A DNA stretch of 64,000 nucleotides, from NCBI GenBank assembly GCA_963711565.1, contig CAVQEQ010000003.1, positions 736,001-800,000 on the forward strand. The letters run 5' to 3'. Positions 11,288-26,483 of this stretch are shown here, in pieces. This stretch comes from an uncultured delta proteobacterium (GTDB lineage Bacteria; Desulfobacterota; Binatia; Binatales; Binataceae). Position numbers and translations under genes: made by a program. The notes beneath the pieces were generated by a model that saw nothing but the letters and a program-made list of their open reading frames with translations, had not been told where the DNA came from and ran no database searches. The first letter of the stretch is position 1. Each line of letters begins with the position of its first letter.

Positions 11288-12483
11288 GCGGCGCTCCTCG
11301 ACGCGATCATCTCGAGCGCGATCTTCGCGACGCGTCCGGCCGCGCCCGGCGAGCCGAGCTTCTCGCGCAACGCCTTCAGCGCCGCGACCGTCTCCGCACG
11401 GATGGTGTCGCTCAGCAGCGGCTCGGCGGCCCGCACCAGCTTCTCCACGGTCACCTCGCCCTGGATCAGTTCCGGCACGATCTGCCAGCCCGCCAGGATA
11501 TTCGGCATCCCGATAAAATCCACTCCCGTCACAAGCATCCGCCCTAGGATATAGGTTAGCCGCGACACTTTGTAGGCGATGACTTCGGGGCATCCGAGCA
11601 GCGCCGTCTCCAGGGTGGCGGTCCCCGACGCAACCAGCCCGAGCTCACTCGCCGCCACAATGTTGTAGGTATCGCTCTCGACAATCTTGATTCCTGACAG
11701 GTCCGCGCGTCCAACTTCGGCAAGTTCGGCCTGCGTCAGGGTCGGCGCCAGCGCGAGCGCTATCTGAAGATCGTGATCGCGCGCGACAATCCGCGCCGCC
11801 TTGACCATCGGCTCCAGCAGATATCGAACTTCGGCGCGGCGGCTGCCCGGCAGGATCGAAATGATTCGAGCGCGCGCCGGGAATCCGTGACGCTTAAGCG
11901 TCTCGTCCCGGCTCTGTACCGTCGCAACTCGATCGAGCAGCGGATGCCCGACGAATGAGACGCGCTCGCCCGCGCGATGAAACAGTTCGGCCTCGAACGG
12001 CAGTACCACCGCCAGCCGGTCCGCGCGATCGACCAGCTTGTCGATTCGGCCGCGACGCCACGCCCATACTTGCGGCGTGATGTAGTAGAGCACCGGCACG
12101 CCATTGCGGCGCGCGGTGCCCGAGAGAATCAGGTTGAACTCCGCGTAGTCAATCAGGATCACCAGGTCCGGCCGCTCGCGCCGGATGATTCGGCGCAGCG
12201 CGCGAAACGCGCCAACGGTGCGCCCAATCGTCGAGGCCAGTTCCGAAAGTCCGAGTCCGTGGATGTCCTCGGTCTTGACGATTGCGCGGACGCCGGCCGC
12301 GCGCATTTTCTCGCCCGCGATTCCGAACAGTTCGCACGACCGGTCGCGCGCGAGAATCTCCCGCGCCAGGTCGCCGCCATGAAGATCGCCCGACGCCTCG
12401 CCCGCAACGATCATGATGCGGCTCCGGTGTGCGGTTTCTCTCAGGCGCTCATCAAGCGGCGGCGCTTCAGCATTCAAGGGCAT
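11284..12483 (-). CDS. lpxB: Lipid-A-disaccharide synthase
   Basis: AGEASGDLHG, PQVWAWR, LPFE, VGHPL, LPGSR, SGTATLE and PELIQ motifs. Confidence 0.96.
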   Translation of the reverse strand: MPLNAEAPPLDERLRETAHRSRIMIVAGEASGDLHGGDLAREILARDRSCELFGIAGEKMRAAGVRAIVKTEDIHGLGLSELASTIGRTVGAFRALRRIIRRERPDLVILIDYAEFNLILSGTARRNGVPVLYYITPQVWAWRRGRIDKLVDRADRLAVVLPFEAELFHRAGERVSFVGHPLLDRVATVQSRDETLKRHGFPARARIISILPGSRRAEVRYLLEPMVKAARIVARDHDLQIALALAPTLTQAELAEVGRADLSGIKIVESDTYNIVAASELGLVASGTATLETALLGCPEVIAYKVSRLTYILGRMLVTGVDFIGMPNILAGWQIVPELIQGEVTVEKLVRAAEPLLSDTIRAETVAALKALREKLGSPGAAGRVAKIALEMIASRSAA

Positions 12484-12625: not shown

Positions 12626-13549
12626 CTATCGGCCGGTGAGGCCGCTGGCGTAGCGAAAGCTGCCCCGCCCGGCATCGATCGCGGACGCTTCGCGTGGCAC
12701 TGCGTCGGACCTCTTCCAATCCGAAAAATCGAGCTTGAGCAGCTCCTCGAGCGCCTCGACCTCAGGTAGATAGCGCTCGGCCAACATCGCTTTTTTCTCG
12801 GGCGAAAGTGCCGGAAATATCTCGCCGCGCCCGTTGCAAAAATCCCAGATACCGGTCCTTCCCATCGCTCTGATCAAGCCATAAGCGTGACGCCTCTTCA
12901 GCCGGTATCGGAGGTGCCGCGCATTCTGGGCGAGTTTGCGGCTTTTCGGCGCGCGCTCGATCGAATTGGCCCGCCGTTGCCCAGTGCCATCATCAGGAAT
13001 CGAGATTCGCGCCGTCCCAATAAAGTCGCACACCCGGTCCAGATAGTCCTGGGGATCGTCGCGCAGCTCTTCATAGCGCATGATCAAAAAGCGCTCGCGG
13101 TCGAAGTGATCAAACCATGCCCTCAGCTGCTTTGCGTAGCGGTTGCCGTCATCGATATTCGGGCGCTGGTTGAGCACTTCATCGAACGTTCCACGTACGA
13201 ACGCACCGCGTACCAGCATTTTGTAAGTCGAATAGGCATGCTCGACCGGATTGCGAAACGTCACGAGGAATTTGCAGTCTGGCAGATGGCGATGAATGCG
13301 CGCGGGCGCCTTCATCGTGTTGAAGTAGGGACAAATCTCCGCCACCTTGCGTTCGCCGGTCGCGTAGCGGAAATGGTGCTGGTACCATTCGATTCCCTTC
13401 GAATAGAAGGTGGTGAAGAACTGCGTCTCCTTGACTCCGTACGGTAGATCGACGTGACCCTTGAGCAGCCCATGCAGCCAGGTTGTACCGGTACGGGGAG
13501 GGCCGAGCCCGATGAAATCGGGCAACCTGGTGATGGAACCTGACGCCAT
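12626..13549 (-). CDS. PAPS-dependent sulfotransferase
   Basis: 5'-PSB loop PDFIGLGPPRTGTTWL, KETQFF, 3'-PB motif FRNPVEHAYS, YEEL. Confidence 0.88.
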   Translation of the reverse strand: MASGSITRLPDFIGLGPPRTGTTWLHGLLKGHVDLPYGVKETQFFTTFYSKGIEWYQHHFRYATGERKVAEICPYFNTMKAPARIHRHLPDCKFLVTFRNPVEHAYSTYKMLVRGAFVRGTFDEVLNQRPNIDDGNRYAKQLRAWFDHFDRERFLIMRYEELRDDPQDYLDRVCDFIGTARISIPDDGTGQRRANSIERAPKSRKLAQNARHLRYRLKRRHAYGLIRAMGRTGIWDFCNGRGEIFPALSPEKKAMLAERYLPEVEALEELLKLDFSDWKRSDAVPREASAIDAGRGSFRYASGLTGR

Positions 13550-13692
13550 AACGCAGTCCCCATTAGCAGGTAGTGGGCCTGCCCACCCGAATTAGGGTCA
13601 AACCTTTGATGGAGAGCCCCTCCACCTTTCGACGGATCGTTTGACGCTCCACTGCGATTTCGCCGATTGTTAACGGTGCTCAGGAGAGAACG

Positions 13693-14776
13693 ATGAAGAC
13701 ACTGGATCGCAACAATCTTGACCTGAACGTCGCCCTGGCGCGCGCTGCCTTGTCGGTACTTGTGCTCGTATCGTGGTACGTCGATCCGTCTTACGGTGGA
13801 TGGTTCTACATCGACGAAGCTTCGTTGATCATTCTGACCCTGCATCTCGCCTACAGCCTGACCGCGGTCGTACTTATCGACCGCGGTATCGCGCCCTCTC
13901 TGGTGCCGGCAGGCTGCACCGCTCTCGACATCGTGTTTGCCGGCGTGGTCACGATCGTGACCGAGGGGCCGACCAGCCCCTCCTGGCTGTTTTTTGTCTT
14001 CGCGATTATCGTGGTCGATTGCAGCACCAGCTTTCGCGCGGTGATGACGGTGACGATTTTCAGCTCGCTGGTGTATCTCGTGCTGCTGGCGGCTTTCGTC
14101 CCCGGCCCCGGAAACGAGTACCTGATGCGGGCCGCGTACCTCGCCATCATCGGCTACCTGATCGGGTTCGTTGGCGCGCAACGCGCAAAGTTCGAAGCGC
14201 GCGTGCGCGACCTCGAGGCGGCCGCCGAACGCCATGCGATCGCGCGCGCACTTCACGACGGCTACGTGCAGGTGTTGGGCGGTGCGAACCTTCGGCTCGA
14301 GACCTGCCGGAACCTGATGAAGACCGGGCGCTCCGCCGAGGCGCTGGCAAGGATCACCGACCTGCAGAAGGAACTGGCGCGGGAATACGACGGCGTGCGC
14401 GCCTATATCCGCTCGCTCGCGGACGTTCGAACAGATCCCGGAGTTCGAAGAACACCCGTTTGCGGTCGAAACACTTTTCGAGCTGACGGCAAATTTCGCG
14501 GGGCGCGCGCGGCTACTCGAGCAGGTTCTTCAGATCGTTCTCGAAGGAGTGCGAAATAGCTGGCAGCACGGCAGAGCGGCCTGCGCCGCGATCAACATCA
14601 GCGCCGCCGACCATCTGATCCGAATCGCGATTGACGACGACGGCGTCGGCATTCGCAATCCCGAGAATCCGCCGTGGGCAATCGCGTCGCGGGTTGCCGA
14701 ATTCGGCGGGCAGCTGAGAATCGGCGGCGCTGAGCGTCCAGGCGCTCATCTGGAAATCGAAATCCCGGCGGCATAG
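13693..14776 (+). pseudogene. Membrane sensor histidine kinase (HisKA_3), split by a +1 frameshift near 14426 (possibly a sequencing error)
   Basis: TM helices and H-box ARALHDGYVQ lie in the first frame. N-box EGVRNSWQH and G1 box DDDGVG continue in the shifted frame (...LADV/EQIPEFEE...). Confidence 0.8.
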
Positions 14777-14778
14777 CT

Positions 14779-15414
14779 ATGGCGAAGCGCCTGCGTTTAA
14801 TCATCGCCGACGACCACTCGATTTTTCGCCAGGGTCTGAAGGAGCTGCTGCTGCTGCAGCCCGACGTCGAAGTGGTCGGCGAAGTCGCGCGCTTCAGCGA
14901 TCTCGCATCGATGCTGACGACCACGTCTTGCGATGTGCTCCTGCTCGATCTGCAAATGGAACGCTGGGTGGGCGGCAATATCGAACGGCTCAGCCGGATC
15001 ACCCGCGTCGTCGTGTTGACCGCGAGCGAGCGCAAGGAAGACGCGATGGCGGCGCTGCGGATGGGCGCGCACGCGTTCGTGCAAAAACGTTACGCGGTGG
15101 AAACCCTGATGGAAGCGATCCGGTCCGCGGCGCGGGGGCTGGTGTGGATTCCTCCCGCATTGCAGGCGGAACTCGCCGCCCAGCTCCGATCGCCCGCAAG
15201 CCGCCAGCTCTCCGACCGCGAGACCGAGATCATCCGCTGTATCGGCTTGGGGCTGCGGAACGCGGAAGTCGCCCGCCGGCTCTCGATCGGCGAAAGTACG
15301 GTCAAGACACATCTCAACAACATCTTTCAGAAGCTCGGCATCCGCGACCGTGTCGAGCTGGCGCTCTACGCGCAACGTGTTGGACTGGCGGAAGGGCCGC
15401 GCGGCAAACGCTAG
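14779..15414 (+). CDS. NarL/LuxR-family response regulator
   Basis: Receiver IIADDH...LLDL...VLT...K followed by the LuxR HTH LSDRETE...STVKTHLNNIFQKLG. Confidence 0.94.
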   Translation: MAKRLRLIIADDHSIFRQGLKELLLLQPDVEVVGEVARFSDLASMLTTTSCDVLLLDLQMERWVGGNIERLSRITRVVVLTASERKEDAMAALRMGAHAFVQKRYAVETLMEAIRSAARGLVWIPPALQAELAAQLRSPASRQLSDRETEIIRCIGLGLRNAEVARRLSIGESTVKTHLNNIFQKLGIRDRVELALYAQRVGLAEGPRGKR

Positions 15415-15474: not shown

Positions 15475-15906
15475 TCAATTGTCTTGCTCGAAATTCCGCC
15501 GGATCGCATCGCGTATCTGATCGACCGGCGAGCCCTGCTCCGACATCCGCTTCGCCAGCAGCGCCTCGCCGGTGCAAATTTCGCACGACGAGCCGTGCAT
15601 CCCGCGGTAGCAATCGAGCAGGTTCTGATGGCCTTCCGCCTTGTCGCATCCGCAGTAGCAATGCAATTCCGCGAGCAGCGCGGGATTTTGCTCGGCAAAT
15701 TTGTATGCTTCCTTTACCGGACCGACGAACTGATTTGGATCGAGCGTCAAGCGCCCCTGCGTTCCATCTGCCGCGACGGTTTCCGCCGCCTCCGCCCGCC
15801 CCGCGCCGCGCGCGCTATTCACCGATGAACCGCCGAGCATCGGCCACAGGTATGCAAGCGCGGTAATCGCAGCGAACGAGGAGCCAAGAATTATAGTCCG
15901 TCTCAC
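15475..15906 (-). CDS. PCYCGC-motif family exported protein (copy A)
   Basis: N-terminal hydrophobic anchor, LHCYCGC, GHQNLLDCY, HGSSCEIC and IRDAI; GTG start. Confidence 0.82.
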   Translation of the reverse strand: MRRTIILGSSFAAITALAYLWPMLGGSSVNSARGAGRAEAAETVAADGTQGRLTLDPNQFVGPVKEAYKFAEQNPALLAELHCYCGCDKAEGHQNLLDCYRGMHGSSCEICTGEALLAKRMSEQGSPVDQIRDAIRRNFEQDN

Positions 15907-15972
15907 GCTGCACCACCCATGTTCAGTACGCCGTCAGCAATTGCAAATTCGCTCCGAGGTAAAACACGCTAC

Positions 15973-16839
15973 TCAATGCGGCGGCGGTGTATTGGCCAGC
16001 ACCACCGACCATCCAAGCACGACTGCCAACAGGACGCATTCCACGGCCACGTTTCGAACCAGCGTAGCACGGGCCGAAGATTCTCCGATCGATCCTACCA
16101 GCCGATATCGATTGTAGCCGCCAATCAGGATCACCGTGGCCGCCGTGCCGACCTTCCACAGCAGCGTCCGCCCGTAAAGCGAATTCACCAACAGATCGAG
16201 ATGCAATCCCAACGTATCCCACGCCCTGATCGCGCCGGTCACAATCAGTGCGGCGACTGACCATCCCGCGATCGTCGATACTCGCGACGTTGCCGACCGC
16301 AGCCAATCCGCACCGGCATGTCCGTAGGTCGCGCCTATCAACAGCGAGACCAGCGCGCCGATCCACATGCCCGCCGCGGCCTGATGCGCGAAATGAACGG
16401 AGATCGCAAATGCGCCTTTGTCGATCGCATGACTCGTTACGCTTTGCAGCGCGAGCAGAGCCGCCGAGATGGCGAATATCAGCGCCGTCGCAAGCCGCCC
16501 CGGCGCGGGAATCCAGGCCACCAGAGCCAACAGCAGCGCCGTCGCGAGTCTCCACGTCCATACCCGGCCGGCAAAAGTCTCGCGCATAATCTGCGGCATC
16601 ACCGGAATAACTTCTCTGAAGGTCGAATCCGCCATTCCCGCGCCGACGGACAAGAGTCTGAGCGGCGACATCACGACTACAATCAGAGCGAGCACTCGCC
16701 ACAGCGACGCCATGCTTCTGCTCCATCGTTCGCCGTCGGCGAGATCGCGCGGCGCCGCCACCAGCGCGAAAGCCGTAGTTCCGAATATCAGCACTTGCGA
16801 CCCTACCAACGGCCACGCGAAGATTGGCTGCGGGATCAC
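15973..16839 (-). CDS. copD: CopD family copper uptake membrane protein
   Basis: TSHA, HFAHQAAAGMWIGAL, TG, YGRTLLWK and NRYRL motifs. GTG start overlaps the copC stop (GTGA). Confidence 0.88.
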   Translation of the reverse strand: MIPQPIFAWPLVGSQVLIFGTTAFALVAAPRDLADGERWSRSMASLWRVLALIVVVMSPLRLLSVGAGMADSTFREVIPVMPQIMRETFAGRVWTWRLATALLLALVAWIPAPGRLATALIFAISAALLALQSVTSHAIDKGAFAISVHFAHQAAAGMWIGALVSLLIGATYGHAGADWLRSATSRVSTIAGWSVAALIVTGAIRAWDTLGLHLDLLVNSLYGRTLLWKVGTAATVILIGGYNRYRLVGSIGESSARATLVRNVAVECVLLAVVLGWSVVLANTPPPH

Positions 16840-17225
16840 GATCCGCCGTTTACGACCGAGAAGGTGTACGAACCGTTCGTGTGATGCGTGTCGATGCACA
16901 CGACCGCCCACTTGACTGTGTAGTCGCCGGGCTTCAGCGCGCCCAATTTGACCGACAACTGGATTCCGTCGTCGCTGACTTGCGGCGTTCCGACCGCCAG
17001 GTTCTGCCCGTCAGCGCCCGTCACTTCCAGCTTGGCGAACAGCTTCTCGATTGGTGCGTCGAATTTGATCGTCACCTCCGACGGCGCCGATCCTAGTGTC
17101 TGCCCCGCCTTCGGACTTTCCTCCTCGGGAAACGAATGCGCGGAGGCCGGAATCGGAATACTCACTACAATTGCCAGTAGCGCGGGAGCGAATAGCAACA
17201 TTTTTCGGACGTTCATGGTTCTCAT
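16836..17225 (-). CDS. copC: CopC periplasmic copper-binding protein
   Basis: Signal peptide ASA/H gives a mature His1. P..G, GDYTVKW and DTH..G.Y.F.V match the CopC pattern; adjacent to copD. Confidence 0.9.
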   Translation of the reverse strand: MRTMNVRKMLLFAPALLAIVVSIPIPASAHSFPEEESPKAGQTLGSAPSEVTIKFDAPIEKLFAKLEVTGADGQNLAVGTPQVSDDGIQLSVKLGALKPGDYTVKWAVVCIDTHHTNGSYTFSVVNGGS

Positions 17226-18136
17226 TCTCCGTACAACTTCCAGTTGCCTTGCGGAAATATCGAGTCGTAGAAAATATCCAACAGCCCGAGGATTGCCGCA
17301 TGATTGCCGGATACGCTTGCCTGGTTGAGCGCGAACTGGGTGCCGACGCTGAGTTCGAAACGGTAGCTGACGTACGCAATTCCAGGCGTCACCAGGATCG
17401 TCGGGAAGGTCTGGCCCGACGGTCCTTTCACCAGTTGGTTGTAGTTGAATTCATTGAACAGAAACAGATTGCGCAGCGGCCACTTGAGTCCGATGTCCTG
17501 CACGTTGTTGCTCAGGTACAGGAGCGAGTACTCGATCATCCCGTCGGCAAACATATTGTGACTGGTATGTCCGCCCAACGCGGGGATATAGCCGTAGTCA
17601 AACTGGAATCCAATCGGCCGCAGCCACTTCAGCAGCGTGGTGTTGGGCAAGTCGCCGAGCGCCTTCGCTCCGATCAATTCCGGGCCGAGGCTCGTATGCT
17701 GTTGGGACTGAACGGATGGATTGCCCGTGGGTAAATCCAGCACCGCCTTCGCCGACAAAATAAATTCATGTTGCGGAATGATTAGAAACGCATACTTGGC
17801 GAACAGTTCCAAATCGTCGAACCCGCTGACATTGGCCCCCTGCTTTGGCGATTGGTAGATCCAGGTCGAGCCGCCGCCGACGCTGAATCGCGGCAAGTTG
17901 TCGCTGTCGGTGCCGAGCAGTTTTTCGATTGACGAACCGATTGAGAAAGTGCGGCCACCGGAATTCCGGTTCCAGTCCGGCGCGACTATATCCGCCTCGT
18001 TGGCCGGAGTCGCGTCGTCGGTCACCAGCGGCTCCAGGAATATGTAATCCCCTACGACTCCGTGCGCGTACACTGCGCTCGCGCGCAGCGCGATCACTGC
18101 TATCAAAGCTAACACAAGACTTTTCCGCATTATCAT
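17222..18136 (-). CDS. Putative outer-membrane beta-barrel (COG4313/MetA-pathway-like) with mature N-terminal His
   Basis: Signal peptide AVYA/HGVVG, amphipathic strands and GFDDLELFAKY...LDLPTG. Stop overlaps the copC ATG. Confidence 0.6.
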   Translation of the reverse strand: MIMRKSLVLALIAVIALRASAVYAHGVVGDYIFLEPLVTDDATPANEADIVAPDWNRNSGGRTFSIGSSIEKLLGTDSDNLPRFSVGGGSTWIYQSPKQGANVSGFDDLELFAKYAFLIIPQHEFILSAKAVLDLPTGNPSVQSQQHTSLGPELIGAKALGDLPNTTLLKWLRPIGFQFDYGYIPALGGHTSHNMFADGMIEYSLLYLSNNVQDIGLKWPLRNLFLFNEFNYNQLVKGPSGQTFPTILVTPGIAYVSYRFELSVGTQFALNQASVSGNHAAILGLLDIFYDSIFPQGNWKLYGE

Positions 18137-18200
18137 TCATCACGGCCGCGAGGGCCGCATCCTCTACTGGTATAAATTGGGTTAAATTGAGTTTCGTGAT

Positions 18201-18665
18201 CTATGGTTCCGTGACTGCGACGCGCACGGACCGGTCGGCAAGCGAGCGTAAATAGACGAACAGCGCGCTCGCGAACAACACCGCGTCCAACGCGAGCTCG
18301 ATCCACATTCTCGGACGTGATGGAGCGCCGGCGCCGAAACAGCCGCAGTCGAGTGTGAGACCTCGCAGCAGCGCCGACGCCAACGCCGTGAAAAATACCG
18401 CGGAGAGCAGAACGACGGCGATCGCCCCTACCCGCCTGGTCCGCGGCCCGAGCAACAAGAGCCCGCATGCGATCTCGAATGGCGGCAGACCCAGCGCGAG
18501 CAAGTTGATGAACACCGCCGGCAGGATCCCAAACGCCGCGATGCTGTCGGCGAATTGCAGCGGGTCGCGCAACTTGTCGATGCCCGCATAGATGAATACC
18601 GCCGCCATCGCCAGGCTCACCGCAAGCAGCACGTAGCGAAGACGCGGGTTGTCCGATGCCATCAT
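18201..18665 (-). CDS. MauE/DoxX family membrane protein
   Basis: FIYAGIDKL.DP..F, LPPFEIACGLLL and RGLTLDCGCFG (MauE CGCFG motif). ATG overlaps the rhodanese stop. Confidence 0.88.
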   Translation of the reverse strand: MMASDNPRLRYVLLAVSLAMAAVFIYAGIDKLRDPLQFADSIAAFGILPAVFINLLALGLPPFEIACGLLLLGPRTRRVGAIAVVLLSAVFFTALASALLRGLTLDCGCFGAGAPSRPRMWIELALDAVLFASALFVYLRSLADRSVRVAVTEP

Positions 18666-19249
18666 TTTCCGCTCCCTGTCGATGCCGGCAGTCCTGCCGC
18701 CGACCATGCTTCCCACCCGCCGGTGAAGACGCTGACATTGCTGAAGCCGAGACTCAGCAACGCGTTTGCGACGAGGCGGCTGTCATGACACTCGCCACCG
18801 GAGCAGTACACGATAACCCGCTTGTCGGTGGCAGCTTGCAACACGCCGGAGAGACTCCGATAGTCGTGCGCGAAGTCATCTCGCGCGAGATTCAACGCTC
18901 CCGGCACGTGCCCCTGCTCGAAGAAAACCGACGGCCGCGCATCAAGGATGAGAGCGCTCTTGTTGTCAACGGCTGAACGGAATTCATCGAGTCCGATCGT
19001 TGCGGCGGGCGCGATCTTGAACGGCGGCGCCGCGACCAGGGTCGTCAGCTCGGCATCGAACCTTTGCTCCGGCGTCTGAAAGACCATCGGAAGTGGCGCC
19101 GGGTAATAGCGGTTCATCGCGAGTCCAGCGGCAAGGGACGCTGCTGCGAGTACTGCAACAACGCCGAGATCGCGAACAAGCTGCGAGCCGAGGCTCCTCG
19201 CTCGACGCGCCGGATCGTGGGTGGTTATCGACGAGACTGCTGAAGTCAT
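18662..19249 (-). CDS. Membrane-anchored rhodanese-like protein
   Basis: LDARP..F..GHVPGALN, active-site loop VYCSGGECHDS and FTGGWEAW, preceded by an N-terminal TM helix. Start uncertain (19249-19300). Confidence 0.88.
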   Translation of the reverse strand: MTSAVSSITTHDPARRARSLGSQLVRDLGVVAVLAAASLAAGLAMNRYYPAPLPMVFQTPEQRFDAELTTLVAAPPFKIAPAATIGLDEFRSAVDNKSALILDARPSVFFEQGHVPGALNLARDDFAHDYRSLSGVLQAATDKRVIVYCSGGECHDSRLVANALLSLGFSNVSVFTGGWEAWSAAGLPASTGSGK

Positions 19250-19259
19250 ATCTGTGTGA

Positions 19260-19862
19260 TCAGCTGGCCGGACGGCTGCCGGCTGACGCATCTCCATCAA
19301 GGACTCGTTGCAAATGACTGGCAGGAGATTCGTGCCCGGCGTGGCCGTCGTGGCCGGTACTCAGGGCGCAGGCCGGCGCGGCGCTGGTATGTGGCGGCTT
19401 GAAGTCCGACGGGACCAAACGCTCGCGCGCCGCCCATCGGTCGAAATTGCCGGGATTGCTCGCCAGCACGCGAAATCGCATGCAGACGGTGTCACAGCCA
19501 CAGCCGGAATCGCAATTTCCGTAGAGCTCACCCGGTGACTTGAGGATCAGATCGAGCGGGCGCGTCTTGCCGGGCAGGATGCTTACCGCATCCTTCATCC
19601 CGAGAATCCAGAAGCTGTGGATCACATCGGCGGAAGCAAGCTCGAGCCGGACGTTCGTGTCGCTGGGCAGGTACAAAACATTGCTGGTCTTGATGCCGAG
19701 AGTCGGGTAGTCGAATTCCCACCACCACTGATGCGCGACCGCTTTGACCGTCAGTTCAGGCCGGGTCGCGCCACCGCCGACGGCTCGCGCGAGAAAGAGC
19801 GCTGCTGCACAGACGCACGCCAGACCGACCATCGCTCCGACCAATGTTCGTGACGACTTCAA
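19260..19862 (-). CDS. Stand-alone CoxII-like cupredoxin with a non-canonical CuA loop
   Basis: AHQWWWEFDY, LYLP, LASADVIHSFWI, PG and YGNCDSGCGCDTVCM, with one N-terminal hydrophobic segment. Start is TTG 19862 (overlaps the sco stop) or ATG 19832. Confidence 0.8.
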   Translation of the reverse strand: MKSSRTLVGAMVGLACVCAAALFLARAVGGGATRPELTVKAVAHQWWWEFDYPTLGIKTSNVLYLPSDTNVRLELASADVIHSFWILGMKDAVSILPGKTRPLDLILKSPGELYGNCDSGCGCDTVCMRFRVLASNPGNFDRWAARERLVPSDFKPPHTSAAPACALSTGHDGHAGHESPASHLQRVLDGDASAGSRPAS

Positions 19863-20557
19863 GCATGAGCCTCGTGAAGGGTCGCCGCGATGATCGCGCC
19901 GTTGCCGGCCGCCACCGGCTCGTTCGCCACGGCTCGCTCCACGTCGCTCGCAACGCGATCCGGCTCGGCCTTTTCTCCCATGTACTGCAGCAATGCCTTG
20001 CCATTCGCGTCGACCAGGAAGAACTCGAGAACGTGATCGACCGTACCGTCGGCTTCGTGCTGCCGAATCAAGTCGAATCGCGCCAGCACATCGTCGATCT
20101 GCTTTGGCGTGCCGGTAAGGAACAGCCATCCGTTAACGTCAGCGCCCTGAGCCTTCGCGTAGGCGTTTAGCTGCGCGGGGTGATCGTGTTCGGGATCGAC
20201 CGTTATCGACACGATGCGCGCTTCCGTTCCAAGCTTGGGCCCGAGTCGATCGGCGATCTGTTTCATCCGGCTCGTCAGGACAAGACACGGTCCGGGACAG
20301 CTGGTGTAAATGAAATCGAACAGCACCGGTTTGCCTTTCAGCGACGCCAGCGAGACCTTCTTGCCGTTCTGATCGAGCAACGTGATGTCGGGCAGGCAGT
20401 CGGAGGTATTGCGCACCTCGAACCCTCCGCGCTCGCCGATATTTTCCTCCGGCTGGCGGCAACCAGTTAGAACCTTCGCGCCCGCGAAAACAACCAGCAT
20501 CGTCAGAAATAAGCTCTTCCCGATCGACAAAACGGTTCTCGTGGATTGCATCACCAT
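19859..20557 (-). CDS. SCO1/SenC family copper chaperone (copy 2)
   Basis: DQNG, FIYTSCPGPC (CxxxC), ITVDPEHD, WLFLTG and the conserved His in VDHV. Confidence 0.92.
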   Translation of the reverse strand: MVMQSTRTVLSIGKSLFLTMLVVFAGAKVLTGCRQPEENIGERGGFEVRNTSDCLPDITLLDQNGKKVSLASLKGKPVLFDFIYTSCPGPCLVLTSRMKQIADRLGPKLGTEARIVSITVDPEHDHPAQLNAYAKAQGADVNGWLFLTGTPKQIDDVLARFDLIRQHEADGTVDHVLEFFLVDANGKALLQYMGEKAEPDRVASDVERAVANEPVAAGNGAIIAATLHEAHA

Positions 20558-20560
20558 TTT

Positions 20561-21016
20561 TCAATTGTCCCCGGCGTATTGTCTGCGGAGCGCATCGCGT
20601 ATCTGCTCGACCGGCGAGCCCTGCTCCGACAGTTGCTCCGCCGTCAGCGCCTCGCCGAGGCAGATTGCGCACACCGAGGCGTGGGTGCCTCGGTAACAAT
20701 CGAGCAGATTCCTATGGCCGTACGTCTTGTCGCATCCGCAGTAGCAATGCAGTTGAGCCAGCAGCGCGGGGTTCTTCTTCGCAACCTCGTACGCCTGCTT
20801 TACCGGCCCGACGAACTGGTTGGGATCGAGTGTCACGCGCTCGGGCGCCGCGTTGGCCGCGAGAGTCTCGGCCTCCGCCCGTGCGGTGCAGCAGCAATGA
20901 CCCAGGATGCACATCGCGCCACGCTCAGTTGACGAAGCGCCGAAAGTCGGCAGCCACAGGTATGCCAGCGTCAGGATCGCCGCAATCGAGGAGCCCAAAA
21001 TGATTGCTCGTCGCAT
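20561..21016 (-). CDS. PCYCGC-motif family exported protein (copy B, with a Cys/His-rich insert)
   Basis: LHCYCGC, GHRNLLDCY and HASVCAIC; paralog of 15475..15906. Alternative start 21034. Confidence 0.82.
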   Translation of the reverse strand: MRRAIILGSSIAAILTLAYLWLPTFGASSTERGAMCILGHCCCTARAEAETLAANAAPERVTLDPNQFVGPVKQAYEVAKKNPALLAQLHCYCGCDKTYGHRNLLDCYRGTHASVCAICLGEALTAEQLSEQGSPVEQIRDALRRQYAGDN

Positions 21017-21026
21017 GCTGTGTCTC

Positions 21027-21620
21027 TCAACCATTGTTCAGAGTTTTCTTAACGTCATCGACGATGTCCTGGGCCTTGACGATCTCGCCGTTGTACTCGC
21101 GCACCAGCCGCCCGTCGGGCCCGACCAGCATCATGTTGACTAGGTGACCAACCGATCCGTCCGGCTCGACTTCACGGCTGAGCTTGAACCCCGCCAGCGC
21201 CTGATCGATATCCGCCGGGCCGCCCGTCAGGAAATACCAGCCTTTCTCGTCCGCCCCTTGCTGGCGCGAGTAATTGAGTAACTGCTTGGGGCCGTCATGC
21301 TCGGGATCGACGCTGATCGAAACGAGCGTCACCTTGGAGCCGAGATCGCTGCCCAGCCGCAGCGCGACGTTCGCAAACTTCGCCGTCTCCATCAGGCACG
21401 GTCCGGGGCATGACGTGTAGATGAAATCCACTACCAGCGGCTTGCCCTTGAGCGACGAGAGCTCGACCGTGTTGCCGTTCTGATCGACGAGCTTGGTGTC
21501 GGTTAGAACACTGGCGGTGCTGTTCGCGGTTGAGCCGCCATGACATCCCGCAACCGAACACAAGCTCAACGTCGCGACCAGCGCGATTGCGAGAGATCTG
21601 AGATTAGAACGAATACGCAT
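21027..21620 (-). CDS. SCO1/SenC family lipoprotein (copy 1)
   Basis: Lipobox VAGC, FIYTSCPGPC, SVDPEHD, WYFLTG and VGH. Start ATG 21620. Confidence 0.92.
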   Translation of the reverse strand: MRIRSNLRSLAIALVATLSLCSVAGCHGGSTANSTASVLTDTKLVDQNGNTVELSSLKGKPLVVDFIYTSCPGPCLMETAKFANVALRLGSDLGSKVTLVSISVDPEHDGPKQLLNYSRQQGADEKGWYFLTGGPADIDQALAGFKLSREVEPDGSVGHLVNMMLVGPDGRLVREYNGEIVKAQDIVDDVKKTLNNG

Positions 21621-21698
21621 ATCTGTATCCCTCTGGTAAGTGCGATTCTCTAGTTGCCGATTAGGCACTGATACCTATCTCTTTTACTCTTCCCCGCC

Positions 21699-21780
21699 TC
21701 AGAAACCGTAACTCAGAATCAGCTTGCCCGCGAAGCCGCGTCCTGCACTCGCGAGCCATCAGGCTCTCGCGAGCAATCAT
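21699..21780 (-). pseudogene. Remnant of an outer-membrane (TonB-dependent-like) receptor: start codon fused out of frame to the C-terminal beta-signal
   Basis: Minus strand 21746..21699 reads AGRGFAGKLILSYGF-stop, a terminal amphipathic strand ending YxF. An out-of-frame ATG lies at 21780. Confidence 0.45.
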
Positions 21781-21808
21781 TCTTGCGCGAAAATTTGAAA
21801 CTAATGCG

Positions 21809-22129
21809 CTAGCTGAACAGCTTGGGCGGAGGCGGATCGGGAGCTTCGGCGAGTTTACTCTTCAGGATAGGTTCGAATTGAGCGAGGCTCTCGTGCGAAA
21901 GAACTCTCGCGTCGATGCCGGGCTGCGCGGGGCGCGCGATCTGCACGATGCCCGGCGCGCTGTCGAGCGCTTGCAGGGGATGACAGATGTCCATCGAGAT
22001 AGTCGGCCCCGAGCGATCGGCAATGATAATCACGCCGAGCGACGGCAGAGTCGCCATCATCATGATGAACGCCATCGCAGCGGCCAGTTGCCGCATAAAA
22101 GCGCGATCGATTGTCATCGCGGTTGCCAT
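21809..22129 (-). CDS. Small leader-like protein with signal/TM segment, CH motif and C-terminal PDPPPP (DUF2946/CruR-like architecture)
   Basis: Met-rich hydrophobic N-terminus, ICHP and the tail LAEAPDPPPPKLFS. Confidence 0.6.
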   Translation of the reverse strand: MATAMTIDRAFMRQLAAAMAFIMMMATLPSLGVIIIADRSGPTISMDICHPLQALDSAPGIVQIARPAQPGIDARVLSHESLAQFEPILKSKLAEAPDPPPPKLFS

Positions 22130-22131
22130 GG

Positions 22132-22578
22132 TCAGAAGAGCGCGCGTCCACCTTTCAAATCCGCAGTTTTGATCCGCACGACTCCCGCATCTTCCTCATG
22201 CTGCAGGCTGACGGGCACACACGACGCCTTGCCCTCAGTCATCTGATCAACCGGATAGTGATTGCCGCAGACCCGGCAAATCAATTCGCCGTCAACCACG
22301 CGGTAGCCGCTGTGGTACGCCGAACACTGGCGGCATGCGTCGAACACCGAGCGCACTTTGCCGTCGTTGCCGCGCGCGAGCACGAAGCGCAGCCGCTTGC
22401 CGGCGTCGTCGGTGTAGCAGAAAACCCGCGCAATCCCGGGACGCAGCGCGGACACGTTGACGGCCACGTCGTCGATGCCGCTCACGGTTGTGCAGTTTGA
22501 GGTCGCGGTGAAGATGAGAAACGCGGCACCCGCCGCGAGCACCAGCCCGCCGAGAATCCTGAACTTGCCCGCACCCAT
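22132..22578 (-). CDS. DUF2318 / FtrD-like membrane-anchored Fe-S (Rieske-like) protein
   Basis: FDACRQC, GY, ICRVCG and CVPV motifs, with an N-terminal TM helix. Confidence 0.85.
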   Translation of the reverse strand: MGAGKFRILGGLVLAAGAAFLIFTATSNCTTVSGIDDVAVNVSALRPGIARVFCYTDDAGKRLRFVLARGNDGKVRSVFDACRQCSAYHSGYRVVDGELICRVCGNHYPVDQMTEGKASCVPVSLQHEEDAGVVRIKTADLKGGRALF

Positions 22579-22587
22579 GACGGCTCA

Positions 22588-22616
22588 ATGCTGTCGCAGC
22601 GGAGCGCGAGCGTCAA
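22588..22616 (-). promoter_or_regulatory. Possible sigma70 promoter for the copper operon
   Basis: Minus strand TTGACG-N17-CAGCAT ends 9 nt before ATG 22578. The -10 element is weak. Confidence 0.35.
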
Positions 22617-23561
22617 GGTGCGACCGAGTCCGTCAGCATCACTTGTTTGATCCTCTCGGTCAGATCCATCACGCGAAGTCCGTCGTCGGCGCTGACCGCC
22701 GGCGTCGATCTGCCGCGAACCGCCGCCACGAAAGACTTGACCTCGTCGGCCAGCGGGTCGCCTTCGCCGAACTCGATCTGTTCCGCCAAAATCGTCGGGA
22801 ACTGCGCGCCACGCGCCGGCGGAGTTTTGCGATACATCTGGATGCTGCGCGCCTCGTAGTCGACCGAGATGTACGCGTCGGGCTGAAAGAAGCGAATCTT
22901 GCGCTCGCGGCGAGCCGACACGCGACTAGTCACCAGATTCGCGATTAGACCGCTCTGGAAGCGGATGCGCGCGTTGGCGAGGTCGATTCGATCGGTAAGG
23001 ATCGCGACGCCGACCGCCTCCAGCGACGCGACTTCCGACGGCGCCAGCGACAGGATCACGTCGAGATCGTGCACCATCAGATCGAGCACCACGTCCACGT
23101 CGGTGCCGCGCTCGGTGAACGGCGCGAGCCGATGGCATTCGACGAAGCGCGGATTTTTCACGATCGAATGCAGATGCACGACCGCCGGATTGAACCGCTC
23201 GAGATGGCCGATCTGAAGAATGCGCGCGCTCGACGACGCCAGCCCGGCCAGGTCGCGCGCCTGCGCCAGCGTTTCCGCCATCGGTTTTTCCAGCAGCACG
23301 TCGATGCTCGCTGTCAGCATCGCGGACGCGATCTCATGATGGGTCACGCCGGGCGACGCAATCGTCACCAAGTCGATCTTACCCGCCAGCGCGCGGTAGT
23401 CGGTTAGCGCCGTCGCGCCAACTTCGGTCGCCAGCGCGCGCGCCCGCTCAACGTCGAGATCGACGATGTGCGCGAGCTTGATGCCCGCGATTGCGGCGTA
23501 CTTGCGCGCGTGCAGAGTGCCGCAGGCCCGCGCCAATGACCGCGGCACGCAGCTCAGCCAT
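22613..23561 (-). pseudogene. Gfo/Idh/MocA oxidoreductase (GnnA-like), frameshifted in the Rossmann GxGxxG near 23522 (possibly a sequencing error)
   Basis: MAELRAAVIGAG, then a frame change to GTLHARKY...EKPM...GHLERFNP...DVVLDLMVHDLD. Length 949 nt is not a multiple of 3. Confidence 0.82.
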
Positions 23562-24369
23562 TGGCTTCCGCATAGCCGTAAATCGTCACGTCTTTCGCGC
23601 GTGCGAGTTCGAGTGTGCGATCGCGTTCGAGAATCAGCGCGACTCCGGCTTCGACGCCGATCATCGCGGCGCCGATTTCGGCCAGCAGATCCACCGTGGC
23701 CGGACCAATCGCCGGCCGATCGAAGCGCAGGTCCTGTCCGGGCTTCGCCGCCTTGGCGATCACCAACCCCGCGCCGACCAGCGCGGCCGCGCGGCGCAGA
23801 GCGGCATCCGTTCCTTCCAGTGCTTCCACGGCGGCGACCATTCCGTCGCGGACCGCGACCGTCTGGCCGATATCGTAGGCGCCGAGTCGGCGCGCAACCG
23901 CGAATGCGAGATCGAGATCGCGCATTCGAGCGGGAGTCGGATCGGGACCGGCGCCGACGCCGGCGCGCGCGATCCAATGCTCGATCATCGGCACCGGATC
24001 GATCATCTTGATGCCTTCGCTTTCGACTTCGCGCGCGACGCCGCGCAGCACGGCGTCGTCGCTGAAGCGCCCGATGTTCGCGAGCATCTTGAGCGCGCGT
24101 GCGTCCGGTGCGAACGAGTCTTTCAGCCGCGCGCGTGAGATGCCGCCCGCCATCGCAGCTTCCGACACGCCGGCGTTTTTGAACACGTCGATTATCTTCT
24201 GCAGCTCGCCGACTTTGATCCATGTGACTTCGCCGGCGATTGAGTCGAGCGCCCGATCGCTTTCATTGAGGTGTGCGACGGCGATGATTTTTATTCCGCG
24301 CGTGCGTGCGGCGCGCGCTACTTCGAGCGGGAAGACGCCGTTGCCCGCGATTAGCCCGAGCTTATTCAC
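23554..24369 (-). CDS. lpxI: UDP-2,3-diacylglucosamine diphosphatase LpxI
   Basis: LGLIAGNG.FP, DIGQTV, AVEALEGTD and KPGQDLRFDRPAIG; directly after lpxA. Confidence 0.93.
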   Translation of the reverse strand: MNKLGLIAGNGVFPLEVARAARTRGIKIIAVAHLNESDRALDSIAGEVTWIKVGELQKIIDVFKNAGVSEAAMAGGISRARLKDSFAPDARALKMLANIGRFSDDAVLRGVAREVESEGIKMIDPVPMIEHWIARAGVGAGPDPTPARMRDLDLAFAVARRLGAYDIGQTVAVRDGMVAAVEALEGTDAALRRAAALVGAGLVIAKAAKPGQDLRFDRPAIGPATVDLLAEIGAAMIGVEAGVALILERDRTLELARAKDVTIYGYAEANG

Positions 24370-25156
24370 GCTCGCGGCCAACGACTCCGCGCTTAGAGTT
24401 GTTGATGAAATCGACCAGGCGCCGCACCTCGGCGAGGTCGCCGTATTCCTCGAGCGTCTTCGCGATCGCGTCCTCGCGCAGCAGCTTGGAGAAGAACAAC
24501 GTACGAATCGCCGACTTCAGCGCCGCGATCGTCTCGGGCTTGAAGCCGCGCCGCTGCAGGCCGACCTCGTTGACGCCCGCCAGCCGTGCGCGCTCGCTGC
24601 CCGCTACCATCGAGTAGGGCGGCACGTCCTGCGCGACCTTGGCGCCGGCGGCGACGATCGCGTGAGTGCCGATGCGCGTGAACTGATGCACGCCGACCTG
24701 GCCCTCGCAAATCGCGTAATCTTCGATCAGGCAGTGGCCAGCCAGCCCGGTGGACGCCGCCAGGATCACGTGGTCGCCGATGATGCAGTCGTGCGCGACG
24801 TGCGCGTAAGTCATTATCAGCGTGTGACTGCCGAGTTTTGTCAGCATTCCGCCGCCTTCGGTGCCGCGGTGGATCGTTGCGAACTCGCGAATCATGTTGT
24901 CGTCGCCGATTTCGACGACCGATGGTTCGCCCTTGAATTTCAGATCCTGGGGTTCCGCGCCGATCGCCGCGAACTGCCAGATGCGATTGCGCTGGCCGAT
25001 GGTGGTGTTGCGCTCGATCACCGCGCTCGCGCCGATCGCCGTGCCCGCGCCAATCTTAACGCCCGGTCCGATGACCGCGCCCGGACCGACTTCGACGCTC
25101 GTGTCGAGCTCGGCGCGTTTGTCGATGACCGCGGAGGAATGGATTTTTCCCGCTAT
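24362..25156 (-). CDS. lpxA: UDP-GlcNAc O-acyltransferase
   Basis: Hexapeptide repeats, PQDLKF, IREFATIHRGT, HVAHDC, VHQF and QDVPPY. The apparent start is ATA 25156. Confidence 0.95.
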   Translation of the reverse strand: MAGKIHSSAVIDKRAELDTSVEVGPGAVIGPGVKIGAGTAIGASAVIERNTTIGQRNRIWQFAAIGAEPQDLKFKGEPSVVEIGDDNMIREFATIHRGTEGGGMLTKLGSHTLIMTYAHVAHDCIIGDHVILAASTGLAGHCLIEDYAICEGQVGVHQFTRIGTHAIVAAGAKVAQDVPPYSMVAGSERARLAGVNEVGLQRRGFKPETIAALKSAIRTLFFSKLLREDAIAKTLEEYGDLAEVRRLVDFINNSKRGVVGRERE

Positions 25157-25614
25157 CGAACTTGCTCCTCGACTTCCATCGCGGACAATTCCGCCTCGGC
25201 CGCCAGCTCGTCGCCGACGTGCGCCTCCGCATGCATTCGCCACAGCGGACGATGAAACTTCGATATTTTTACTTCCATCCGCAGCTGATCGCCCGGGATA
25301 ACGCGGCGCCGAAAGCGCACTTTGTCCAATCCCGTCAGCATGAACAGCCGCGTCGGGTCACCGCCCACTTCGTTGAGTGCCAGGATTGCCGCCGACTGCG
25401 CGAGCGCTTCGACGATTAACACCCCCGGCATCACCGGGTGCCCGGGGAAGTGCCCGGCGAAGTACGGCTCGTTGAAGGTGACGTTTTTGATCGTTACGAC
25501 GCGGCCCTTGGTCAGTTCGATGATGCGATCGACCAGCAGAAATGGATAGCGATGGGGCAGCAGCCCCAGCACGCGCTCGAGCTCCGAGACTTTCGTTTCG
25601 TGGTCGTCAGGCAC
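25153..25614 (-). CDS. fabZ: 3-hydroxyacyl-ACP dehydratase
   Basis: LPHRYPFLLVD, NEPYFAGHFP and PVMPGVLIVEALAQ motifs. Confidence 0.96.
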   Translation of the reverse strand: MPDDHETKVSELERVLGLLPHRYPFLLVDRIIELTKGRVVTIKNVTFNEPYFAGHFPGHPVMPGVLIVEALAQSAAILALNEVGGDPTRLFMLTGLDKVRFRRRVIPGDQLRMEVKISKFHRPLWRMHAEAHVGDELAAEAELSAMEVEEQVR

Positions 25615-25648
25615 CGGGAGTTACTTCGCGCACGTTGTCTCGGGCGGC

Positions 25649-26305
25649 CTACTTCGAGATGGTCGATTTCTTGGCCGCATCGGTACCGAACTCCGACGGC
25701 TGCGACGCCCCCGCCGGATCGTCGTCGCCCTGCATGCTCGCGGGCGCTACGGCGCCACCCGGCCCTTCGCCGACGGTGCCAATCGTCACGTGCATCGCGT
25801 TGTAGCTGCGGATCACCTGGTCGGTGATATCGATATTCGGCGCGCCCCAGAGAATCGATCCCTTCTCGAACACCATCGTGTAGTTGTCGCGCTCGCCCAG
25901 CGTGCGGATGACTTGCGCGAGGTCGTGCACGATCTTCGCCGTGACCTCCTGGTCCTTCGCCTGCAACTCATCCTTCGAGTCCTTGTAGTCGCGCTCGAAG
26001 TCCTTGAGCTTTTCCATGTACTGGTCCTGCAGGGCCTGGCGCTGATCGGCGTTCATCAGCATGCCCTTTTTCTCCATCTCATCCTTGAGCGCCTGGACCT
26101 CGTTCTGCTGCCGCTGCAGGTGACCCTCGAGCGTAGTGACCTTGCCCTGGAAGTCGGCTTTGGCGCGCTTGCCGGCGTCGCATTCGTTCAGGGCCCGTTG
26201 CACATCGACATAGGCAAACTTGAACTCGGCGTGCGCGGGAACTGCCGCCAACGTCACCGCGAGGAACGCACCAAACATCGCACTAATGAACAACCGTTGC
26301 CTCAT
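25649..26305 (-). CDS. skp: OmpH/Skp periplasmic chaperone
   Basis: Signal peptide, KFAYVDVQRAL, coiled-coil body and DITDQVI; downstream of bamA. Confidence 0.9.
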   Translation of the reverse strand: MRQRLFISAMFGAFLAVTLAAVPAHAEFKFAYVDVQRALNECDAGKRAKADFQGKVTTLEGHLQRQQNEVQALKDEMEKKGMLMNADQRQALQDQYMEKLKDFERDYKDSKDELQAKDQEVTAKIVHDLAQVIRTLGERDNYTMVFEKGSILWGAPNIDITDQVIRSYNAMHVTIGTVGEGPGGAVAPASMQGDDDPAGASQPSEFGTDAAKKSTISK

Positions 26306-26483
26306 ACAGCCGGGAAACCCTCCTGTTGACTGACTACCTGAAACGGCGAAACACGTTCGCACGGGCGCGCCTCTGGTGCATCGGAAATATACACAATAGT
26401 ACCTCGTCGAGCATCAAATCCAGTTGCATTCGACCTGTCTCGCCGATGTTTGTCGAAAAATTCGTTTGAGCCGGTTCGCGAAG

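Follow-up and report, generated by a model that had tools for sequence, protein, structure and literature searches.

A variable cassette of copper genes carries both Sco genes found in a Binataceae genome and encodes an orphan CoxII-like protein

The stretch of DNA analysed here, a window of 64,000 nucleotides from an uncultured member of the Binataceae (contig CAVQEQ010000003.1, positions 736,001 to 800,000), raises the question of what a dense run of genes for Sco, CopC, CopD and Cys-rich proteins is for when the most unusual of its products, an orphan relative of cytochrome c oxidase subunit II (hereafter the CoxII-like protein), has no oxidase beside it. All twelve open reading frames (ORFs) listed in an earlier note on this DNA were found on the minus strand, from position 22578 down to 15475 and in the same order, and their packing is as tight as described there: with the likely starts, 8 of the 11 junctions overlap or span 10 nt or less, the remaining three being 188, 70 and 66 nt. 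Pfam identifies the products of ten ORFs, all above the curated cut-offs: an FtrD-like (DUF2318) protein, two SCO proteins, two PCYCGC proteins, a COX2 periplasmic domain, a rhodanese, MauE, CopC and CopD, the last matched over its C-terminal part only. The other two, a leader and a predicted His-tipped outer-membrane barrel (His-barrel), had no match in the Pfam profile search of the window proteins. The earlier note took the cluster for a self-contained pathway that builds a copper centre, possibly with inserted sulfur, on the CoxII-like protein. Its copper theme and the synteny in relatives hold up; the self-contained, sulfur-inserting, CoxII-centred pathway does not. We consider it probable that the cassette imports copper and that Sco delivers the metal to copper proteins, chiefly three CuA oxidases whose genes lie in other parts of the genome.

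This reading begins with the distribution of Sco and its clients. By the labels of its homologues, the genome is assigned to Candidatus Binatus / Binataceae. The genome surveyed (4.84 Mb in four contigs, 94.9% complete) contains two Sco genes, both within the cassette and both encoding lipoproteins with a PF02630 match: Sco1 (21027..21620; longest ORF start 21668) and Sco2 (19859..20557; all cassette features lie on the minus strand). The cassette Sco proteins have the thioredoxin-like SCO domain, CxxxC motif, distal His and membrane anchor of Sco chaperones; the CPGPC motif and distal His are invariant in 28 Sco1 rows, and lipobox-like ends are present in the sequence. No oxidase subunit I was found within the window, as the earlier note had said of heme-copper oxidases, yet four COX1-family genes lie outside it, together with three Cu-oxidase_3 matches. 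Three of the four score as A-type cytochrome c oxidase subunit I, one of them narrowly missing the cut-off that the other two exceed, and each is accompanied by a subunit II with the canonical CuA motif H..CxExCxxxHxxM. The fourth has no NCBIfam match at 1e-20, and we take it to resemble a quinol nitric oxide reductase. None of the three CuA oxidase operons contains Sco; two Caa3_CtaG genes lie beside two oxidase operons, and neither PCuAC nor Cox11 was found in this genome. Because the sole Sco genes sit in the cassette and the three CuA oxidases have none, CuA supply in trans would be the simplest role for Sco, and with the canonical CuA oxidases elsewhere a self-contained pathway is not supported.

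Across 165 genomes of the family, Sco was found in 161 and PCuAC in one, so the Binataceae, an abundant soil family, must finish CuA otherwise. Papers cited here by PMC number are represented by excerpts, to which statements about them are limited. In Bradyrhizobium, ScoI, PcuC and TlpA jointly build CuA (PMC6669012), and in Bacillus the unrelated lipoprotein CtaK replaces PCuAC (PMC9145763). The cassette resembles the ScoI/TlpA/PcuC system of Bradyrhizobium diazoefficiens, as far as it is described in the excerpts of PMC6669012 and PMC9145763, in its membrane-anchored Sco with CxxxC and His, in the TlpA-like thioredoxin of relatives' cassettes and in the canonical CoxB clients of the genome; it differs in the absence of PCuAC, in up to three Sco groups with Cys-rich neighbours of their own and in being unlinked to cox operons.

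These groups appear in a midpoint-rooted FastTree phylogeny, without support values, of 78 SCO domains (the two of the window and 76 drawn from 58 loci), in which each of three Sco paralogue groups keeps a fixed Cys-rich neighbour, FtrD, PCYCGC or the CoxII-like protein, an arrangement that is new. All 18 Sco3 members adjoin FtrD, PCYCGC directly follows Sco1 in 23 of 27 cases, and the CoxII-like gene directly follows 21 of 31 best-hit Sco2 genes. Of 30 loci with a CoxII-like gene, 28 have a Sco2-type gene immediately upstream of it, and in the other two a single gene lies between. Because the loci were picked through the partner genes, these adjacencies are inflated, but which Sco group accompanies which partner is unaffected by the selection. 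At three loci of one genus (L090, L104 and L105; such numbers denote loci in our collection) the CoxII-like gene is followed by a divergent Sco-like gene, which stands apart on a long branch of the Sco tree.

We collected 20 regions around PCYCGC matches, 18 of them from the same genus, and 16 of those 18 lie between gfo and lpxB; the counts come from related genomes and are not independent. FtrD, Sco1 and PCYCGC are present at all 16 (PCYCGC by selection), the leader at 12, a third Sco at 11, His-barrel, CopC and CopD at 9, TlpA and a second predicted barrel tipped with Cys (Cys-barrel) at 8 each, rhodanese and MauE at 6 and the CoxII-like gene at two; four of the 16 have the minimal FtrD-Sco-PCYCGC content. 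The cluster is a mix-and-match cassette at a fixed site, not a fixed operon. The neighbourhood comparison proposed in the earlier note finds synteny in relatives and no fixed co-occurrence, with modules varying independently at one site. Nor do the counts support a cluster built around the CoxII-like gene: two of the 16 gfo-lpxB loci have it, as do 31 of the 165 family genomes, and it usually sits in another unit. Locus L037 contains the full window gene set in identical order plus five additional genes, which marks the cassette of the window as a reduced version; close kin have, beyond its genes, a third Sco, the Cys-barrel, TlpA, a small lipoprotein and a Sco ahead of the last PCYCGC. No account of the cluster or of the CoxII-like family was found in the literature searched, which included few subscription papers and had supplements outside its scope; taken as a whole, the cluster combines known copper parts in a new way.

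FtrD (22132..22578; PF10080, E 5e-18), a membrane-anchored protein with two CxxC motifs and a fifth Cys, is the steadiest cassette member: 119 of the 165 family genomes have an ortholog, and all five Cys are kept in 47-48 of 47-48 aligned homologues. Its constancy also favours a different reading, that of a general envelope thiol-redox or iron cluster akin to fetABCDEF to which copper genes were added secondarily. The YHS and TlpA genes of relatives parallel the DUF2318, YHS and thioredoxin genes of the fet cluster (PMC10783030), and 4 of 20 loci from other genera, chosen through FtrD, have no copper gene nearby. The gfo-lpxB site is used at 9 of these 20 loci, Sco, His-barrel and CopC occur at 10 each, PCYCGC at two and the CoxII-like gene at none. 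The FetA/FtrD proteins of Campylobacter fetMP-fetABCDEF, as described in the excerpts of PMC10783030, share the two CxxC motifs and fifth Cys of DUF2318, and relatives of the cassette have YHS and thioredoxin genes nearby as well; in contrast, the cassette FtrD is small and stand-alone, and the cassette has no FetM/FetP, FTR1 permease or ABC transporter. The single FTR1 of the genome is about 420 kb away and not linked to DUF2318. With Sco, CopC and CopD predominating, we regard a thiol or iron cluster as very unlikely.

The CoxII-like protein (19260..19862) was identified by its COX2 Pfam match, fold and alignment. It has about 200 residues, one transmembrane helix, a His-rich tail and no cytochrome c, and its soluble domain comprises about 130 residues. 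The predicted model has a CoxB cupredoxin fold (Foldseek E 1.6e-12 to 2yev_B; root-mean-square deviation 1.7 Å from 4w9z over 131 columns), in which the ligand loop is modelled poorly (predicted local distance difference test score, pLDDT, of 58 for residues 121-130). Residue counts refer to the best 120 of 415 homologues found. Among these, the first His of CuA (His82) is retained in 119, and the bridging pair Cys117 and Cys121 and the ligand Met128 in all 120, while the second His is found in none of the 120 and is replaced by Thr in 106. Three extra Cys are nearly invariant (Cys123 in 120, Cys127 in 119 and Cys165 in 117), and 117 have one hydrophobic helix. CuA has one terminal His for each copper (PMC6696091). 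Fold, first His, Cys pair and Met are thus common to CoxB (2yev_B, 4w9z) and the CoxII-like protein, and the second His, the cytochrome c and the subunit I partner are missing from the latter. The earlier note's orphan, altered CuA-like protein is borne out by these results. It may act as a CuA or copper-thiolate protein in which Cys123 or Cys127 substitutes as ligand, or the extra Cys may instead form disulfides. A decaying oxidase copy was excluded by the invariant extra Cys and by a median ratio of nonsynonymous to synonymous substitution rates (dN/dS) of 0.20 over 29 pairs (range 0.105-0.345).

The variant is narrowly distributed among genomes, occurring in the 31 family genomes mentioned and in 1 of 300 other genomes of the phylum, that one within the genus; divergent metagenomic variants exist, for which the source states no taxa. 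Among the best 150 matches in a library of 50% clusters, 13 have the variant motif, 129 the canonical motif and 8 a partial or deviant one. In a quick CoxII tree, a branch with a support of 100 sets 40 canonical rows apart, which suggests a single origin of the variant; 8 canonical rows with long branches or poor filling, probably mis-cut by the domain rule, fall on the variant side.

At 20 wider (19-kb) loci with a CoxII-like gene, Cys-barrel and TlpA are present at 19, rhodanese at 11, MauE at 10 and CopC/CopD at one, so that the CoxII-like gene usually belongs to a separate Cys-barrel/TlpA/Sco unit. Oxidase subunit I occurs at one of the 20, several kb off and with its own CoxB genes, and a nitric oxide reductase-like (NOR-like) gene at one. 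We saw no link of the CoxII-like gene to pmoB (12 of 31 carriers, as compared to 62 of 165 family genomes) or to nosZ (1 of 31 carriers), and pmoB, nosZ and nirK have no match in this genome. Across the 165 Binataceae genomes the 62 pmoB-like sets fall into two score classes, and nosZ-like matches occur in 10, all below the TIGR04244 cut-off.

These loci bear directly on the proposal of a self-contained pathway in which the CoxII-like protein receives a Cys-rich copper centre that might contain sulfide, with rhodanese and MauE as sulfur donors. A rewired ligand set under purifying selection, a Sco group of its own, Cys-barrel and TlpA upstream at 19 of 20 loci and independence of pmoB and nosZ are what such a pathway would have. 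We nevertheless find it quite improbable, given that the CoxII-like gene is at 2 of 16 cassette loci, that its usual Cys-barrel and TlpA companions have been lost in this strain, that no catalytic subunit travels with it and that its loci are without CopC/CopD in 19 of 20 cases and without rhodanese in 9 of 20. The last count also speaks against the sulfur-containing centre of the earlier note. Both Cys of the rhodanese (18662..19249; PF00581; longest ORF start 19300), a membrane-anchored domain with the two-Cys loop CSGGEC, are kept in 20 of 20 sequences, as are both Cys of the MauE/DoxX membrane protein (18201..18665; PF07291), which has a CGC motif. Since the two genes are optional both in the cassette and in the CoxII-like unit, they can be explained without sulfur insertion, and thiol upkeep would be the more economical role.

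The remaining partner of Sco is a PCYCGC protein (20561..21016; PF13798, NF041379), a member of the CYCXC (seleno)protein family with a membrane-anchored, helical, Cys-rich domain and an additional CxxGHCCC linker. The second copy (15475..15906), placed by Pfam, NCBIfam and synteny, has no Cys linker and is not preceded by the Sco gene that precedes its counterparts in relatives. Both exceed the NF041379 cut-off of 90 bits (112.4 and 111.8 bits). The model is a small helical bundle (pLDDT >90 over residues ~61-150) with no Foldseek match at E<=0.001; the best Z is 5.8, which decides neither way, and a weak CcmH-like row has Z 4.7. The excerpts of two reviews list PCYCGC only as a UxxC selenoprotein of unknown function (PMC9312934, PMC13188914), and a paper that mentions PCYCGC by name gives its function as unassigned. 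Compared with the OS_HP4 CYCXC protein (NF041379, PF13798) of those excerpts, the cassette protein shares the CYCGC and CxxC motifs and differs in being all-Cys, in its linker and in its position directly after Sco; in three other Binatia families (L009, L025 and L032) an in-frame TGA replaces the first Cys of CxxC.

The linker separates two contexts. It is present in 112 of 119 close homologues of the Sco-linked PCYCGC and in 1 of 78 copies of a nadA-dominated set, that one being the Sco-linked locus itself. Among 80 PCYCGC loci kept of 382, for which the query came from outside the Binataceae and was led by the nadA-type copy, 65 have nadA/NUDIX neighbours and one has Sco. The run nadA - NUDIX - PCYCGC - DedA is conserved across Binatia (L113-L192), with the selenocysteine form in other families. 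Of six plasmid PCYCGC regions examined, five are metal islands (two with SCO) and one is not. Taken together, the Sco-linked and plasmid contexts set against the nadA context indicate that a copper context is real for one subfamily and recurs independently, and is not family-wide; the functional context that the earlier note offered for the whole PCYCGC family thus applies to that subfamily and fails for the family.

Metal islands also bring in tolerance to copper or other soft metals, with Cys-rich proteins buffering excess copper and thiol-redox modules repairing damage. PCYCGC occurs in islands with Cus, multicopper oxidase and P-type ATPase genes in Burkholderiaceae and Bacillota, and in another Binatia family near a heavy-metal ATPase-like gene; in that region (L054:4382-13822) a selenocysteine-type PCYCGC stands in a run of genes that we take, from their translations, to be heavy-metal ATPase-like, rhodanese-like, HesB-like and DsbA-like. 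Leaders of the CutF type switch on detoxifying genes (PMC9973294). The island of Paraburkholderia atlantica pBC201 (NC_014120.1), compared by its annotation only, combines PCYCGC, TlpA, SCO, DUF2946, a His-barrel homologue, CopC and CopD, to which it adds Cus efflux, DsbD, a multicopper oxidase, a high-potential iron-sulfur protein and cytochrome c; the annotation is without CoxII-like, rhodanese/MauE and FtrD genes. That the same parts return in this unrelated copper island also favours copper import with Sco delivery. The cassette, by contrast, includes neither an efflux pump nor a P-type ATPase nor a multicopper oxidase; it holds the sole Sco genes of the genome, its CopC is without a Met-rich Cu(I) stretch, and its site is a fixed one on the chromosome, amid genes for lipid A, at 16 of the 18 loci from the genus and at 9 of the 20 from other genera. 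Tolerance is therefore, in our judgement, a rather unlikely purpose.

Uptake is suggested by the genes that precede the last PCYCGC. CopC (16836..17225; PF04234) has the His1 and D-T-H site, with His30 conserved in 19 of 19 and His114 in 19 of 20 homologues, and no Met-rich stretch in its mature part. It is followed by a CopD-family inner-membrane protein (15973..16839) that exceeds the PF05425 cut-off and scores 121 bits with NF033808, below the cut-off of 195; a CopC with a His1 site followed by CopD is the arrangement of an uptake pair. Ahead of them lies the predicted outer-membrane His-barrel (17222..18130), whose first mature residue after the presumed cleavage is a His in 19 of 19 sequences. 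Its Atlas neighbours are labelled "transporter", the nearest family being PF13557 in 39% of a cluster. Homologues precede copC-copD on plasmids of Paraburkholderia, Nitrobacter and Methylocystis (3 of 9 records), and the His-barrel ahead of copC-copD recurs in several phyla. A distant paralogue with 30% identity is encoded elsewhere (G000:C3:424236-424991), with no copper gene recognised nearby.

A second barrel has left a scar. The earlier note had described a receptor scar downstream of the leader, and the scar itself is confirmed at 21699..21739: the last 36 nt of an intact Cys-barrel gene from a relative match positions 21699-21734 at 31 of 36, as compared to 21 of 36 at the next-best placement on either strand of the window. 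Ten relatives' Cys-barrel gene ends score 19-32 of 41 against it, and the DNA beyond resembles the relatives' barrel-to-Sco spacer. What remains is about 12 terminal codons and the stop of a gene for a protein of ~330 residues, which in relatives comes after the leader and whose predicted mature end starts with CACGC, the three Cys being kept in 34 of 34. The receptor part of the claim falls, because the lost protein is too short for a TonB-dependent receptor; that candidate was rejected on intact homologues, which are ORFs of 323-378 residues without a TonB Pfam match. The gene is intact at 8 of the 16 genus loci, and no other copy was found in this genome. The lost protein was probably an outer-membrane barrel, judging by its C-terminal Phe and its Atlas neighbours, unnamed porin/transporter clusters of which one has PF13557 in 13% of members. 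Both barrels had zero Pfam matches and zero relatives in the PDB by sequence, and their profiles do not align significantly with each other (probability 1.7%). In relatives, the Cys-barrel/TlpA genes are followed by a small lipoprotein with two Cys invariant in 19 of 19 and no family match (L041:7971-8375, L052:5355-5759), and also by YHS-domain proteins.

The leader (21809..22129) has a hydrophobic N-terminus, a single Cys-His motif and the C-terminal sequence PDPPPPK. In 14 relatives it stands directly ahead of either barrel with a Pro tail and a motif spacing that varies within one residue; from Cys to stop there are 58-59 residues in 14 of 14, and the following intergenic region is 83-165 nt. 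It had zero NCBIfam matches. Upstream ORFs of the DUF2946 type, which have CxxC/CxxxC and a Pro-rich stalling tail, sense copper (PMC9426467, PMC9973294), and such leaders stand first in operons that also contain ScoC, CopC and AhpC_TSA genes (PMC9426467). In Paraburkholderia a DUF2946 gene lies ahead of the His-barrel homologue, and in Ralstonia DUF2946, a Cys-barrel homologue and a redoxin run lie beside a "copper uptake system-associated protein". As far as CruR of Bordetella and CutF-cutO of Rhodobacter are described in the excerpts of PMC9426467 and PMC9973294, they share with the leader a small upstream ORF, a hydrophobic N-terminus, a metal motif spaced from a Pro tail, an intergenic region of ~90 nt and then an outer-membrane gene and Sco/CopC/AhpC-TSA genes. 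We infer that the leader works like CruR/CutF, and claim no membership.

Put together, copper import with Sco delivery would proceed as follows. Copper would cross the outer membrane through the His-tipped barrel and, before its loss, through the Cys-tipped one as well, CopC would buffer Cu(II) and CopD would carry copper through the inner membrane. The Sco lipoproteins would bind it through CxxxC and His and load CuA sites, and with PCuAC absent the linker-PCYCGC and CoxII-like proteins could serve as second copper carriers, stores or dedicated Sco clients. Rhodanese and MauE (plus TlpA in relatives) would maintain reduced thiols, and the Pro-tailed leader would tie downstream expression to metal status in the manner of CruR/CutF.

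Several observations weigh against this picture. Efflux and resistance islands of the Burkholderia type contain the same parts, an iron system is where FtrD/DUF2318 has been described (PMC10783030), and the Sco group that travels with the CoxII-like gene suggests a client beyond the oxidases. A third, linker-less PCYCGC copy (G000:C4:1063047-1063469) follows nadA and NUDIX, a non-copper context. The leader is without the CxxC/CxxxC that CruR and CutF need, has no profile or significant protein match to DUF2946 and ends in PDPPPPK instead of RAPP; it is not the first gene, and it precedes a barrel of ~300-330 residues instead of a TonB receptor. Between leader and scar, the conserved sequence at 21740..21808 can form a hairpin in which 83% of cells in a 13-row alignment are paired, with shuffles as high in 340 of 500; pairing is conserved, with no covariation above shuffles.

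A bolder extension of copper import with Sco delivery, which we put forward tentatively and think doubtful as a whole, is that the Binataceae replaced PCuAC with a set of their own in which each Sco serves a Cys-rich partner, the CoxII-like protein being a natural His-to-Cys variant of CuA with three or four thiolates and the linker-PCYCGC proteins new second CuA chaperones. No description of a three- or four-thiolate CuA-variant copper centre was found in the literature searched. The Sco-coupled linker-PCYCGC is a concrete candidate for a PCuAC substitute, and the CoxII-like family, in which the CuA ligands have been naturally rewired and the change is conserved, could reveal a new copper-thiolate centre. 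The Cys-His leader, if confirmed, would widen the range of metal-sensing upstream ORFs of the CruR/CutF class, and the tables of gene neighbourhoods in PMC9426467 and PMC9973294 may already list Binataceae leaders.

The cassette is set into a run of lipid A/outer-membrane genes at window positions 22613-26362 and 11284-12483, presumably skp-like, fabZ-like, lpxA-like, lpxI-like and lpxB-like, along with a Gfo/Idh/MocA gene. It begins 34 nt downstream of gfo, so read-through from that run may occur. A promoter/terminator scan stayed at chance level, and an Rfam search gave zero matches, the leader-to-barrel intergenic region included. One soil RNA run contained 7% of the sequence words, and three short contigs are identical to the window at 17058-17203, 21729-21904 and 22251-22526, which demonstrates neither transcription nor an operon. 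Between cassette and lpxB (12626-15414) lie a sulfotransferase gene and, on the opposite strand, the paired genes of a HisKA_3 kinase and a LuxR response regulator, which only some relatives have: L037 and L039 have all three after lpxB, and L041, L046 and L047 have the sulfotransferase alone, before lpxB. Just upstream of one relative's second cluster copy (L038:14573-18970) is a gene for an exported G8 / CEMIP beta-helix protein of 1465 residues.

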